The notes beneath the pieces were generated by a model, which worked only from the letters and a program-made list of their open reading frames with translations, did not search any database and had not been told where the DNA came from. Of a stretch of DNA of 64,000 bases, positions 2,921 to 52,762 are shown piece after piece (position 1 is the first letter of the stretch; every line of letters begins with the position of its first letter). Origin of the DNA: Escherichia coli (GTDB lineage: Bacteria; Pseudomonadota; Gammaproteobacteria; Enterobacterales; Enterobacteriaceae); assembly GCF_029227855.1 (NCBI RefSeq), contig NZ_CP074356.1. The stretch is one strand, 5' to 3'. The translations under genes and the position numbers were made by a program.

Positions 2921-3835
2921 TTACTGCAGCAGGCTGGAAACCATGCTGGACATGCTGTTGGACTGTTTCAGCATGGTGATGCCGGTCTGCATCAGCACCT
3001 GTTGTTTGGTCATGTTGGACGCTTCCGTCGCGTAGTCGGTATCCATGATGTTACCGATAGCAACTTCGGTGTTGTCCTGCATGCTGGTCAGGTTATTAGC
3101 CGTGTCGTTCAGACGGTTGATAGACGCACCCAGTTTGGACTGGATCTGAGACACGTCATCCATCGCGGTAGAGATGCTGGTGATCATCTGGTTAGCCGAG
3201 CCAGACGCAGTCAGCTCAGTACCGCCAGAAACGCCTGCGGTGCCCGTGGTGTCAGCCTGATCCGCACTAAAGGAGCTGCTGATAGCAGAAAGATCAGTCA
3301 CCAGGGTATTCAGCTGGCTTGAAATATTCACGGTCATGGTGTCGGAAGATTCCGCGCCCACCTGGAAAGTTACCGCGCTCTGGAACAGACCGTCAGTACC
3401 GGTGTTGCTGGTGCCGGAAACACCGAACAGGTTGGTGCCGCCGTAAGTGGTGTTTTGCAGCATGTCAGACATCTGCTGGCCCAGTTCGTCGTATTCGTCC
3501 TGCATCGCCTGCAGGTCGTCGTCGCTGTAGGTGCCGTTCGCTGCCTGAGTTGACAGGTCTTTCATACGACCCAGCACGTCAGACATTTCGTCGAACATGC
3601 TGTCAGCGGTTTGCAGCATCGCGGTGGCATCATTGATGTTGCTCAGCGCCACCCCCATACCGCTGGACTGTGCTGTCAGACGGTTAGCAATTTGTTTGCC
3701 TGCGGCGTCATCGGCAGAAGAGTTAATCCGGTTACCTGTCGCCAGGCGTTCCATAGATGTAGACAGAGAAGAGCTGCTTTTGCTGATTGCATTAACGGCG
3801 GCCATTGAGGCGTTATTGGTGTTAATAGATAACAT
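2921..3835 (-). CDS. lafA: lateral-type flagellin (Flag-2 LafA), 304 aa
   Basis: ORF track; start placed at internal ATG giving MLSINTNNASMAAVNAI... (flagellin N-terminus) with AGGAG Shine-Dalgarno; ends ...SSLLQ; the longer track ORF (from 3901) is an upstream in-frame extension. Confidence 0.9.
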   Translation of the reverse strand: MLSINTNNASMAAVNAISKSSSSLSTSMERLATGNRINSSADDAAGKQIANRLTAQSSGMGVALSNINDATAMLQTADSMFDEMSDVLGRMKDLSTQAANGTYSDDDLQAMQDEYDELGQQMSDMLQNTTYGGTNLFGVSGTSNTGTDGLFQSAVTFQVGAESSDTMTVNISSQLNTLVTDLSAISSSFSADQADTTGTAGVSGGTELTASGSANQMITSISTAMDDVSQIQSKLGASINRLNDTANNLTSMQDNTEVAIGNIMDTDYATEASNMTKQQVLMQTGITMLKQSNSMSSMVSSLLQ

Positions 3836-4271
3836 GATACTGCTCCTTGGGATTAATCGTTTTCGTTTCGATACCCTGTAAAAACGACACCTCGGGAGCA
3901 AACTTAAAACCGCCGTTAAAATTTTTTCGCCACGTATTATCCGATGCCACTTTTAGCTAAAAAAAAACAGAGTTTAAATTCAGATAAAAAGATTATTAGC
4001 AATATCTGCCACATGGCCAGGTATCAAAATATGTCTTTATCAATTGCTTGATATAGTTAAGATTATCATCAATTACCGCGTTTTCTTATCAATGTACTGA
4101 TGCCAAAATTTACATTGCGTTGCAAATAGTACACATTTGGCTATTGTACCTGTCCTGTCATTTCGTTACATTTCCACGCTATATAGTGATTAAGAATAAT
4201 CTTATCACCATAAAATTATTAATTATCACGCAGAAAAATCATCTTCTCAGGGACGTATAAGACTGTGCTTT

Positions 4272-5165
4272 ATGCAAAGCACTATCAGGAAACATTTATC
4301 CCTTGCTAAGGTAAACTCAACTATGAGTATTATTATCAACAACTGGCGGATGGACCCGTCGCTTAATGCCTTAATACATTGCGAAACGGGTGAAACACGT
4401 CGTCTCGGCGAATACCATTTTATTTTGCTGGAAACATTAGCAAAAAATGCCGATGTGGTTTTATCGCGATCTTATTTATGTGCCGAAGTATGGAAGAACC
4501 GCATTGTCGGCGGTAACAGCCTGCCGACGGCGATCCACGCTCTGCGCGTTGCCATTGATGATGACGGCAAGCAACAGAACATTATTAAAACTATCCCGAA
4601 AAAAGGGTACCTGTGCAATAAAGAGTATGTGTCTTTGCCGGAGTCATCGCCTGCGGAAGCGCTGATTATTACCGACCAGATACAGGAAACAGTACCAGAA
4701 GAGATATCTTCTACAACACCGCCTGTGCCTGTTAGAAAAAAACATAAAGGACTGATGGGGTTAGCGTTGACCGCGGCTGTTATATTTATTGGCTCGACCG
4801 TGGGGTATTCACACTTGAAAAGTACACCTGACGCCCCGCAACTGGTAAAAGAGTCAATTAACAGTCCAAGAATAAAAATATTTCATCTTAGTTCTGGAAA
4901 AGAAAATAATTCCGCACCGTTACTGTCACAAACCCTCGCACCAGGAAAAGACAAACTCGATAATTTATTGTCAGCGCATAATATGACAATGACAACCTAT
5001 TATAAATATGTTCGTAACCGACTGGAGAGTGATATTGTTCTGCGCAACCAGTGCAATGGTAGCTGGCAATTAACCTTTAATGTGGATGAGTGGCAGAATA
5101 GCGATATTAATAGCGCGATGTATCAGAATTTAGAGAAGTTGTTAAATACTGTGCAGAAATGCTGA
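4272..5165 (+). CDS. ToxR/CadC-like membrane-anchored transcriptional regulator (winged-helix OmpR-type DNA-binding domain, one TM segment, periplasmic domain); possibly the Flag-2 lafZ
   Basis: ORF track; N-terminal region ...YLCAEVWKNRIVGGNSLPTAIHALRVAIDD... resembles trans_reg_C winged helix; hydrophobic stretch GLMGLALTAAVIFIGSTVGY; AT-rich gene and upstream region. The true start may be the ATG at 4323. Confidence 0.6.
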   Translation: MQSTIRKHLSLAKVNSTMSIIINNWRMDPSLNALIHCETGETRRLGEYHFILLETLAKNADVVLSRSYLCAEVWKNRIVGGNSLPTAIHALRVAIDDDGKQQNIIKTIPKKGYLCNKEYVSLPESSPAEALIITDQIQETVPEEISSTTPPVPVRKKHKGLMGLALTAAVIFIGSTVGYSHLKSTPDAPQLVKESINSPRIKIFHLSSGKENNSAPLLSQTLAPGKDKLDNLLSAHNMTMTTYYKYVRNRLESDIVLRNQCNGSWQLTFNVDEWQNSDINSAMYQNLEKLLNTVQKC

Positions 5166-42143: not shown

Positions 42144-43263
42144 CTCCCCGCAAGGACTGACGCCAGATAGTTTCTGTCCATGGCTGCTTTTCGCATCTTA
42201 CGTCTTAACCCTGCCTTGAATACCTTATCATTCGTCAAAATATTAATAGCGATGTGCCGTATCCCTGAAAATAATTCTGCTGCATTTCCTCTTCTTATTT
42301 TGCAGTCGTCTTCATTCATTACCACGTCCAGACGCCAGTGCAGCTTATTCTCCACGTGCCAGTGGTTTCGGATTGCTGTGGCGAACTTCTCTGCGGTTAA
42401 ATCAGCAGAACTAATATAATATCTGACCGCCATTTCTGGCTCTTTCTTTTGTTCTGCTATTATTGACCGAAAGGAGACTGCCACGCATAATTTCTTCAGA
42501 CCTTTCCATTCAAACGTGAAATCAATAAGTTCATCAGGGACATCGCAAACAATGTGAAGACGGATTTCTTCTCTGCCGTGACTCTTTTCACTCATTGCGT
42601 AACTGTCATGCTCTGGATTATTTAATTCTTTCAGCGGAAATTCTCGAAGGCTTTATTTAGCCGCCCCTGGTTTCCTTTTACAGCGAATAAATAATCACCT
42701 CCCTGTTTTTGTATCTTCTCTGCAATATCTTTCTGGCAACCCATCGCATCAGTTGTGATGATTTTTCCTTTAATATCCAGCATGTTAAGAAGTTCTGGGA
42801 TAGCTGTAATTTCATTGGATTTCTCATCCGTCCTGATCTGTCCGATGACCAGACTGTGCATTGTTGAGAACGCACTAATGACATGAATCGCTCCCTTGCG
42901 GCGACTCTTGTCATAAGAATGCCGGAGTGTTTTTCCATCAATTGCGATGACGTCTTTATCATCTGAAGTATGGCAATCTCGCATCCAGTTAATAAAGCAC
43001 TCGTGAAATTTTGCAGGACTGATACAGGATACAACTCTGGCGATGGTATCGTGAACAGGAATACCATTTTAAAAATCACCGTATTGTTTTAAAAAATCGA
43101 GATGTGTTTCCCCAAAATCCTCTATATCTTCCCAACCTTCCGCACCCGAAATAACAGCACAAATAGTCAACAGTAGAATATCCGATAATTTATGTTCCAC
43201 TTTCCAGGCTTGTCTGTAATCGGGGATAATAGAAATATGCCCCATCAATTTTTTAAGTTCTAT
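42131..43263 (-). mobile_element. ISAs1-family (H-repeat) transposase gene, inactivated
   Basis: Track ORFs 42631-42984 and 42131-42595 are consecutive parts of an ISAs1/H-rpt transposase in different frames; hand translation of 43263-42985 gives the N-terminus with ATA in place of the first ATG (an in-frame Met codon remains at 43245-43243), and an in-frame TAA at 43071-43069. Confidence 0.8.
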
Positions 43264-43483
43264 TTTGTTCTCCTTAATTATGTAAGGAGTATTTGATCAT
43301 GTATAAGCAATAAAAAACAGCTTTAGGTAATGAGGAATATCTCAATTTTTAAGCATAAAATGCGAATTATTTAGTACAAAAAAGCAGCGTTACGTGATCT
43401 TTCCCTGCACTTCACCCTAACTTTAATTTAACTTCAAGAAGTATTAAGGCCTCAATAGCGAACTTAATACTTCTTAAAGAATA

Positions 43484-43861
43484 TCACTCCTGACCAAAAT
43501 CTTTCCACACTAATGCATGAGACTTTGATTTATCACCCAAAAATTTACTTACATCTTTCCAAAGTAAAGAATTGCTATCGGTCGCAGTGACTATTGCCTC
43601 TATAAGCCCTGTAGCTACAACTGTGGCCAATTCATCATCAATCGAGACCATACCATCTTCGACATGTTTAAATATTTTTTCTCTTTCAATATCACCCATT
43701 TCATAAAAATTTTTTACAATCGTTTTTCCAATCTGAGAGAACAACATAACCACCGGTGGAGTTTCTGGATGCCAGTATTCATTAGCTAATGAGACTGTCT
43801 CAGACAAAACAGTGGAAAACGATGCCATTTTTTCTATATAATTAGCAATATATTGGTTCAT
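43484..43861 (-). CDS. putative immunity protein for the Rhs C-terminal toxin, 125 aa
   Basis: ORF track; small AT-rich ORF whose ATG overlaps the rhs stop codon; classic effector-immunity arrangement; family unknown. Confidence 0.5.
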   Translation of the reverse strand: MNQYIANYIEKMASFSTVLSETVSLANEYWHPETPPVVMLFSQIGKTIVKNFYEMGDIEREKIFKHVEDGMVSIDDELATVVATGLIEAIVTATDSNSLLWKDVSKFLGDKSKSHALVWKDFGQE

Positions 43862-50577: not shown

Positions 50578-50746
50578 AGCAACCTCCGGGTTTAAGGAAA
50601 AACAGACAGTTCGCTGTTAAAGCGGCTGTAACAGTACAGTGTTACGCTTGCGTTCAGGCACGCTACCGCCGAAGTTTCCGGCATCCGCCATCTCCCGTGA
50701 ACGTAACCCCTTACTGACAACCTTTCTTTTTACGGCGTAATACAAA

Positions 50747-50778
50747 AACAGCATCCGGCCTAATAGCCGGATGCTGTT
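50747..50778 (-). terminator. Rho-independent terminator downstream of hcp
   Basis: 13-bp perfect inverted repeat aacagcatccggc / gccggatgctgtt with loop ctaata; on the minus strand it is followed by a T-rich run. Confidence 0.7.
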
Positions 50779-50786
50779 GGCTTAAC

Positions 50787-51305
50787 TTATGCTTCCAGCG
50801 GTGCGCGCCAGTCGTCGGCACCGGAGGTGCCAGACTTGACGTGTTCCCACTCTATTTTGCGGTAGGCCAGTGAAACTTCGAGCAACTGGGTGAACTCGCG
50901 TTTCGCCGGATCCTGGCAATGCGGCATATGCAGTTTCATATCGACAATCGTCGAATCGGTCAGGCGGGTGGTGAAATAATGCTCCTGTTTGCCTTCCACA
51001 GAGGTACGCCACCAGTGAAGTTCAGTGGTTGGCAGCATTTCGCCGGAGGCCAGTGCGTTGTACATCAGCGGAACAGCTTTGTTCAGCGCCACGGTAAAAA
51101 TGAACGGCTTGTGAGCACGCTGACCCGCAGGCTGGCCGGACTGAGGATCGGTCGGGACAGTAACGTTATGCAGGAATTCCTGCACCAGCATCTCGTCTTC
51201 GTGCCCCTGCACATAGATGTTGCCGACAGAATCAGCGGTAAATGCACCTGCAGTAATATTTCCCTGGGTCTGACCAGTGATGGAGATATAACACGGTGTT
51301 GGCAT
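50787..51305 (-). CDS. hcp: T6SS tube protein Hcp (TssD)
   Basis: ORF track, 172 aa, MPTPCYISITGQTQGNITAGAF... Confidence 0.9.
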   Translation of the reverse strand: MPTPCYISITGQTQGNITAGAFTADSVGNIYVQGHEDEMLVQEFLHNVTVPTDPQSGQPAGQRAHKPFIFTVALNKAVPLMYNALASGEMLPTTELHWWRTSVEGKQEHYFTTRLTDSTIVDMKLHMPHCQDPAKREFTQLLEVSLAYRKIEWEHVKSGTSGADDWRAPLEA

Positions 51306-52001
51306 TTGTAAACTCCTTGTTAACGTGGTTAATTACTACTTACAATGACCTGCCGTTAATCCCAGACAGGCAGATGCAGCTCACTTCACGGAACCGCATC
51401 ATTTTTCAGTATTTTTTACATACAAACCGAGCTAGAATTTACGGTTGTCGTAAAAACTATTTTTAAAATCATTAAATCTCTTATTCAGCAATAAGTTAAT
51501 AATATATATCTGGATAACCACACCCAACTATTCAAAGTCCGTATTGCCTCCATAAAATGGCCAAAGCTGAATCATGAATAAATATTGTATTTATCCTTTC
51601 TGAATTATCATTTTGATAATTTTTGAGATATTCCTTAAAAATACCCACTTAATCAATCACAAAACAAATATATAAACAAGCAATCATCAGATTAGCTTAT
51701 GTTTAATGAAATTATTTTATAATTCAATAAGTTACACAAAGTCTCTGTATTTAAATTATTGCCATAATACACCTGACGCGAATTGCACAGGTTCACACAA
51801 TCTATTTAACGCTTGCAGAATACCCCTCTTTACGATCGATAAAAAGTCCTTTTCTTATTTATTTTGAAGCGTAGAATGCGGGGTGATGAAGGAGTGGTGA
51901 TTTTATTTTCACCGCCATTATGGCGGCATTGCCGATATTTTTTTGCGGTACAAATATGCCGTGTTCATGGCCTGTACGAGATAACATGACGGATCACTTT
52001 T
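51306..52001. promoter_or_regulatory. AT-rich divergent control region between hcp and tssB
   Basis: About 700 bp, strongly AT-rich, between divergently transcribed hcp and tssB; GATC sites at 51835 and 51991; specific promoter elements not resolved. Confidence 0.4.
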
Positions 52002-52502
52002 ATGAGCAAAAAATTTGAAGGCAGCGTCGCGCCTCGCGAGCGTATTAATATATCGTATGTCCCAAAAACAGATGGCCAGACGGCTGAAGTTGAACTTCCG
52101 CTTAACATGCTCGTTGTCGGCGATACCGGAAATACGCAGGAAACATCCCCACTGGATGAACGTCAGGCAGTTTCCGTTAACAAGCACAATTTCGGTGCAG
52201 TGATGGCTGAAGCAGCCATTGGCCTCAATTTTACTGTCCCCGCCACGCTGAAGGGAAGCACAACAGACGATGAACTGAATGTGGCGCTGAATATCAAATC
52301 ACTGGATGATTTTTCACCAGATAGCGTGGCCCGGCAGGTTCCGGAAGTGAATAAATTGCTGGAACTGCGTGAAGCACTGACTGCACTGAAGGGGCCGATG
52401 GGTAACCTTCCGGCATTCCGTACCCAGCTCCAGGCATTGCTGGAAAATGAAGAGTCCCGCGAGCAGTTGCTCAAAGAAATCGGCCAGGTGAGCAATAAAT
52501 AA
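52002..52502 (+). CDS. tssB: T6SS sheath small subunit TssB (VipA)
   Basis: ORF track, 166 aa, MSKKFEGSVAPRERINISYVP... Confidence 0.9.
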   Translation: MSKKFEGSVAPRERINISYVPKTDGQTAEVELPLNMLVVGDTGNTQETSPLDERQAVSVNKHNFGAVMAEAAIGLNFTVPATLKGSTTDDELNVALNIKSLDDFSPDSVARQVPEVNKLLELREALTALKGPMGNLPAFRTQLQALLENEESREQLLKEIGQVSNK

Positions 52503-52537: not shown

Positions 52538-52762
52538 ATGACGGCACACAAAAATATCTCCGGGACATACCACCTCTCTGTTGCAGACATTCTGCAGGTG
52601 GTTTACCAGGTATGTTTCAGCCCGTCCGTTGAAATCAACCAGGATGGTGTGGCTGCGCTGATTACAACACTGGATCGCCGTATCAGTGATCTATTGGATG
52701 AGATTATCCATTTTTGTGAGTTTCAGCAGAGCGCGTCGCACTGGCAGCGCGTACTTCACTGA
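52538..52762 (+). CDS. 74-aa ORF resembling the N-terminal segment of TssC (possible gene fragment or small paralog)
   Basis: ORF track; ...ITTLDRRISDLLDEIIHFCEFQQSASHWQRV parallels tssC ...IADIDERISRQMDVIIHAPAFQQVESFWRSL; weak Shine-Dalgarno; coding status uncertain. Confidence 0.3.
   Translation: MTAHKNISGTYHLSVADILQVVYQVCFSPSVEINQDGVAALITTLDRRISDLLDEIIHFCEFQQSASHWQRVLH

Follow-up and report, generated by a model that had tools for sequence, protein, structure and literature searches.

Among the type VI systems found in E. coli, T6SS-2 is the most frequent. It stays silent under laboratory conditions, which blocks the study of its role in EHEC and other pathotypes. The tssA and tssM genes of EHEC are defective. 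A 2026 paper (Vazquez-Lopez et al., PMC13141884) describes T6SS-2 as the most prevalent T6SS type in E. coli and the type present in EHEC, reports that the tssB...tssM operon of EHEC is polycistronic, and names the gap between hcp3 and tssB the bidirectional promoter t6sP. As cited in that paper, this is a divergent promoter with several transcription start sites (Kim, Lee & Yoon 2022, J Microbiol 60:928), and H-NS occupies the hcp3-tssB gap (Wan 2017 and Kim 2022). In EHEC EDL933, transcripts of z0254, z0264 and z0267 rose upon deletion of hns, that of z0264 60-fold, and the effect was reversed by complementation (Wan et al. 2017, PMC5363993). The de-repression of T6SS mRNA in an hns mutant was confirmed in PMC13141884, but deletion of hns alone gave no T6SS proteins in LB, so H-NS is not the whole story. 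In the same work, the t6sP region was swapped for inducible promoters, and no medium tried activated the native promoters; Fur and Dam are not mentioned there.

Two further systems are relevant. In APEC, clpV2 and hcp2B of the T6SS2 cluster were raised by deletion of hns and left unchanged by deletion of fur or by iron limitation (Ma et al. 2018, PMC5874247). Control by Fur together with Dam methylation is described for sci-1, the T6SS-1 of EAEC 042, where a span of 53 nt holds three GATC sites and where GATC-I is part of the stronger Fur box (13/19), which overlaps the -10 element (Brunet et al. 2011, PMC3145626). Published Fur ChIP-exo data place four peaks in or beside the sci-1 cluster of 042 (PMC10164565). 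Throughout, we use variant A for the T6SS-2 form of EHEC and of the DNA analysed here, and variant B for the form of APEC and EAEC 042; these labels are our own. The variant-B genomes were SF-166, the duck isolate HYM1 and EAEC 042.

The region studied here spans positions 51306-52001 of a 64,000-nucleotide stretch of E. coli DNA, referred to as the window, and is the counterpart of EHEC t6sP, the z0264-z0265 intergenic region. On its left, hcp (50787-51305, minus strand, an open reading frame of 172 aa) heads a leftward hcp-vgrG-rhs unit; on its right, tssB (52002-52502, plus strand, 166 aa, supported by both the open reading frame and RefSeq) heads the rightward structural operon tssB...tssM. 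The two genes are thus divergent, with a gap of 696 bp. The sequence of strain JNEC-KY178 is 100% identical to the window, and its RefSeq gene calls match for hcp and tssB, the former labelled 'Hcp family type VI secretion system effector'; the Hcp protein is 100% identical to Sakai ECs_0234. Downstream of hcp lies vgrG, and downstream of tssB lie tssC, tssE and tssF, giving the cluster order hcp-vgrG divergent from tssB-orf-tssC-tssE-F-G-tagH-J-K, and in the RefSeq annotation of JNEC-KY178 the T6SS island adjoins yafV/ivy/fadE. In Sakai, the counterpart (263438-264133) lies between ECs_0233 (impB, i.e. tssB) and ECs_0234 (Hcp-like) and is identical at 675 of 696 positions (97.0%); identity to O157:H7 SS52 is 96.7%. 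Of 5426 complete E. coli genomes, 2235 carry the 696-bp region, in one copy each and at 95-100% identity, with O157:H7, O111, O104:H4 and the commensal HS among the carriers. Gene order beside yafV/ivy/fadE, the identity to Sakai and this distribution together identify the locus as the divergent promoter region of the chromosomal E. coli T6SS-2 island. The earlier note, which had been made from the letters alone, described the region correctly; it is, however, already known from the published EHEC work.

Two features next to the region deserve mention. Directly after the hcp stop, on the minus strand and inside the hcp-vgrG gap (50578-50786), a hairpin with a 14-bp stem and a T run occupies 50747-50778. 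It matches the 32-base hairpin that opens the hcp3 3' UTR in EHEC, described as the terminator and mRNA-stabilising hairpin of the 'h3R' element (PMC13141884). Between tssB and tssC, a 74-aa open reading frame (52538-52762, plus strand) is annotated as hypothetical in RefSeq (Sakai ECs_0232) and corresponds to residues about 50-100 of TssC, of which it is a diverged copy (36% identity, E = 3e-8). Variant-B clusters are without it, and their tssB-tssC spacing is 22 bp. This frame is probably the remnant of a partial tssC duplication or recombination.

The base composition of the region is extreme. Its GC content is 0.335, compared with 0.546 for the whole window, and is the minimum over all 696-bp segments of the 64 kb; it lies 21 points under that of the surrounding DNA, and 200-bp sliding windows inside it drop to 0.265-0.285. 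The AT-richness and the size of the region are therefore real and far beyond chance, and the strongly AT-rich gap of about 700 bp between hcp and tssB that the earlier note had pointed out stands. Two other 696-bp stretches in the window have a GC content below 0.40, at about 3500-4500 and 42500-43500; the latter is close to a hypothetical gene, which follows the Rhs gene, and to ISAs1 transposase pseudogenes. Other kinds of content were sought within the region. A search of 51100-52200 against Rfam at a permissive threshold returned no family at threshold (SNORD12, P9 and 7SK scored 9-15 bits, where the gathering scores are 43-44), and consensus scans of the region for sigma-54, IHF, CRP, Fis and Lrp gave no match that beats dinucleotide shuffles. 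Such repeats as it has are short, AT-rich and of low identity. There are no conserved small open reading frames in it, as 1-bp indels among the alleles break the frames.

We read this region as the divergent promoter and silencing region of T6SS-2, kept silent by H-NS, with the GATC sites incidental and Fur not part of the control, and we put the probability of this reading at about 0.85. The region would carry outward promoters, leftward for hcp-vgrG-rhs and rightward for tssB...tssM, and published genetics in EHEC show that H-NS keeps both operons off in laboratory culture. H-NS may do so by directly coating the AT-rich stretch and occluding both promoters, in which case one or more activators would have to displace it before the operons are expressed. 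The H-NS experiments come from other strains, carrying either the 97%-identical allele or the divergent variant B. Within the region, the best matches to the high-affinity H-NS motif TCGATAAATT reach 8/10, as at 51836-51845 (TCGATAAAAA), and 92-100% of shuffled sequences do equally well. Binding of H-NS does not require a high-affinity nucleation motif. As the motif does no better than in shuffles, AT content by itself carries the sequence argument for H-NS. The lowest GC of the window, taken together with the published de-repression of the EHEC allele in hns mutants, bears out the suggestion of the earlier note that the AT-rich island is a likely H-NS target.

Seven sequences were aligned: the window, O157:H7, E. 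albertii, Yokenella regensburgei, Citrobacter youngae and two variant-B strains. The footprint covers five lineages, because a TssB search of genome contigs gave four loci. The best-conserved block lies at 51815-51877 on the plus strand, where sliding conservation is 0.74-0.77, against about 0.5 elsewhere. It contains AGAATAC at 51817-51823 and an UP-element-like A-tract (ATAAAAAGT, 51839-51847) and ends with a -10-like TAGAAT at 51872-51877, downstream of the A-tract; each of the five lineages has the motifs GTA[G/A]AAT and AAA.AGT.CTT.T. This block is the candidate tssB core promoter, with TAGAAT as its putative -10 element and the A-tract upstream; transcription would start near 51884, which would make the leader about 118 nt long. 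No promoter was called at 51872-51877 by the consensus scan, because the -35 there is poor. Towards hcp, a sigma-70-like ATGATA-16-TACAAT (51584-51611, minus strand) matches at 9/12, which is a consensus match only, and such matches number five in the region against 4.3 expected from shuffles. Among nine variant-A alleles, substitutions cluster at 51708-51747 and 51919-51952 and the remainder is nearly invariant; position 51874 toggles the -10-like hexamer between TAGAAT and TAAAAT. The block at 51815-51877 is the most sensible place to seek the tssB core promoter and its activator.

The earlier note had placed two GATC sites close to the tssB start, and both exist, although each position given (51835 and 51991) is one base off. 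The first occupies 51834-51837, 168 bp upstream of the tssB ATG and at about -50 of the candidate tssB promoter. The second, at 51992-51995, shares bases with the GGA (51991-51993) of the probable ribosome-binding site of tssB and lies 10 bp ahead of the ATG. Two sites in 696 bp, 158 bp apart, compare with 2.1 predicted from the composition of the region, and the whole window holds 261 (1 per 245 bp), compared with 242.8 +/- 14.4 in shuffles. The sites are real, but they are what chance gives and are not enriched. The GATC at 51834 is present in E. coli variant A and absent from E. albertii, Yokenella, C. youngae and variant B, and the one at 51992 is found only in variant A and E. albertii, while its GGA is conserved in all lineages. 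Both are kept in nine of nine sampled variant-A alleles; these are 96-100% identical, and their agreement is hence uninformative.

Fur boxes were scored as 19-mers against the consensus GATAATGATAATCATTATC, with dinucleotide-preserving shuffles as background, and the identical script was applied to the promoter of 042 sci-1 as positive control. There it recovered GATC sites 129, 97 and 80 bp ahead of the ATG and, as the top site, TATAATGATCAAAATTAAA, which matches at 13/19 and holds both a GATC and TATAAT. The scan thus detects the known architecture where it is present. The working sci-1 boxes themselves score 13/19 and 11/19, so weak boxes can function, and a low consensus score is compatible with weak Fur binding. 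In the region, the best 19-mer is GATAAATACAATATTTATT (51577-51595, minus strand), which scores 13/19, overlaps the TACAAT facing hcp and holds no GATC. An equal score is reached by 43% of dinucleotide shuffles, and the 64-kb window has 20 such sites. The best Fur-like 19-mers that do hold a GATC score 9/19 (51834) and 10/19 (51992). Fur-box scoring, a check that the earlier note had itself proposed, therefore returned a match at shuffle level, with no GATC inside it.

We also looked up published Fur ChIP-exo data (PMC10164565, Dataset 2), in which Sakai, a different strain, carries an allele 97% identical to that of the window. In Sakai, there is no peak from 193,075 to 288,115, iron-replete or iron-starved, an interval that includes the region (263,438-264,133), and in 042 there is none from 194,612 to 329,858, which includes the variant-B region (263,117-263,818). 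The Fur pan-regulon table of the same study lists no gene with the prefix ECs02 or EC042_RS01, which cover tssB and hcp of T6SS-2 (ECs0233 and ECs0234 in Sakai). As a separate observation on sci-1 in EAEC 042 (4,850,000-4,872,000), the Fur peak nearest to tssB (4,852,105) falls within a small hypothetical gene, at a distance of about 760 bp from the ATG on its upstream side, whereas the fur1 box sits 86 bp upstream of the ATG. This does not agree with the mapping of 2011. A further peak is located between hcp and tssH.

These results bear on two alternatives to H-NS silencing without Fur. The first is a switch of the sci-1 type, in which a Fur box would lie over a promoter element and a GATC, Fur would leave it when iron is scarce, and methylation of that GATC by Dam would then keep the promoter locked ON; the earlier note had raised this control from EAEC as one that might apply here. 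Two GATC sites within 170 bp of tssB, one of them at about -50 of the candidate promoter, fit such a switch, as does the capacity of sci-1 boxes of 11-13/19 to work. The cluster, however, is T6SS-2 and sci-1 is T6SS-1; the GATC frequency is at expectation and the spacing is 158 bp rather than three sites within 53 nt; and the GATC-holding 19-mers score 9-10/19. Moreover, the GATC at 51834 is lost in four of five lineages and that at 51992 lies in the ribosome-binding region of the leader, neither Sakai nor 042 shows a ChIP-exo peak or regulon membership at T6SS-2, and the APEC relative is indifferent to fur deletion and iron limitation. Of the papers found, none takes up Dam at T6SS-2. A Fur and Dam switch at this region is already largely refuted and scarcely credible, and the idea can be dropped for the T6SS-2 cluster.

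The second alternative is that Fur alone represses the hcp-direction promoter through the site at 51577-51595, over the TACAAT -10-like hexamer. That site is the best Fur-like match of the region, coincides with the sole promoter-like match on the hcp strand and lies in a moderately conserved block (0.74-0.75). Against this stand the frequency of equal matches in shuffles and elsewhere in the window, the peakless interval of Sakai from 193 kb to 288 kb under both iron regimes, and a pan-regulon table that has no ECs02-prefix genes. We regard repression by Fur alone as very unlikely, and H-NS silencing as the reading to retain.

The hns mutants also draw attention to the tssB leader, as deletion of hns raises tssB mRNA and yields no TssB protein in LB, whereas foreign promoters replacing the whole gap do give protein (PMC13141884). 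From near 51884 to the ATG, the leader holds a conserved 12-mer, CATGGCCTGTAC (51966-51977, plus strand), and GGA at 51890 and at the ribosome-binding site. The 12-mer is kept with at most two changes in the five lineages (E. coli variants A and B, E. albertii, Yokenella and C. youngae), within a leader that has diverged around it, and its distance to the tssB ATG varies between lineages. A post-transcriptional element in the leader, with CsrA or a small RNA as partner, may prevent the translation of TssB even when H-NS is absent. Such an element would explain why message and protein disagree for tssB when hns is deleted, but we consider it unlikely. For the seven leader sequences, RNAalifold found no supported structure (-4.0 kcal/mol, covariation term 0.1), and the single-sequence fold reached a z of only -2.2. 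The 12-mer is a further candidate control element. A terminator-like hairpin at 51921-51934 was rejected: its stem is broken by variant-A polymorphisms at 51919, 51921, 51923 and 51931, and it is missing in the other lineages.

On the hcp side, an activator has been proposed for the APEC system, where CpxR-P shifts the hcp2B promoter fragment and overproduction of NlpE induces the operon (Yi et al. 2019, PMC6534853). CpxR-P might likewise activate the hcp promoter here, which would add to H-NS silencing rather than exclude it. The region has three 9/10 matches to GTAAA-N4-8-GTAAA, for example at 51403-51419 on the hcp strand, and 6% of shuffles give as many; there is no perfect CpxR box in it. 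The primers of the APEC gel-shift assay have exact matches in variant B and do not occur in the window, and the segment needed for the APEC shift (about -187 to -210 from the hcp ATG) aligns here to a gap or diverged sequence. Activation by CpxR at this allele is hence doubtful. Since the primers match variant B and the two forms have diverged, experiments on variant B are relevant to this locus by analogy only.

Among the known systems, the T6SS of Salmonella SPI-6 is a different cluster in a different organism, compared here as the citing papers present it (Brunet et al. 2015, via PMC5874247 and PMC5363993); what it has in common with the region is the general principle of a horizontally acquired T6SS kept off by H-NS. 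The likeness to EAEC sci-1 is an AT-rich region upstream of tssB (GC 0.364 in 042) with Fur-like matches of at most 13/19. The 042 sci-1 gene order, tssB-tssC-tssK-tssL-ompA-hcp-tssH, differs from that of the window cluster, and sci-1 has three clustered GATC sites and, in TATAATGATCAAAATTAAA, a Fur box holding both GATC and TATAAT, whereas the window has no such arrangement. Fur ChIP-exo peaks, likewise, lie in or beside sci-1 of 042 and not at T6SS-2.

The vipA2-hcp2B gap of APEC and 042 T6SS2 has the same architecture as the region (702-705 bp, GC 0.31-0.33), shares its conserved ends, including GTAGAAT and the leader 12-mer, and is H-NS-repressed and Fur-independent (PMC5874247). It differs in the central ~400 bp, which BLAST cannot align to the window, in having a single GATC at a different place from the two of the window, and in containing the CpxR-shifted segment, which is not present in the window allele (PMC6534853). 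The proteins have diverged as well, with TssB only about 55% and Hcp 94% identical between variants A and B. By these comparisons, the T6SS-2 of EHEC and the window and that of APEC and 042 are distinct sub-lineages. Results on APEC/042 'T6SS2' should not be transferred uncritically, as the intergenic sequence and TssB differ strongly.

The closest system is t6sP of EHEC O157:H7 (z0264 tssB / z0265 hcp3), known from PMC13141884, from Wan et al. (PMC5363993) and, as far as it is cited there, from Kim, Lee & Yoon. Locus, flanking genes, the 696-bp length and both GATC sites are the same. The differences from Sakai amount to 21 substitutions, clustered at 51708-51747 and 51919-51952, and the -10-like hexamer reads TAAAAT in O157 and TAGAAT in the window. 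The T6SS-2 control region is of practical interest, and in its EHEC form it has already been identified and is under experimental dissection.
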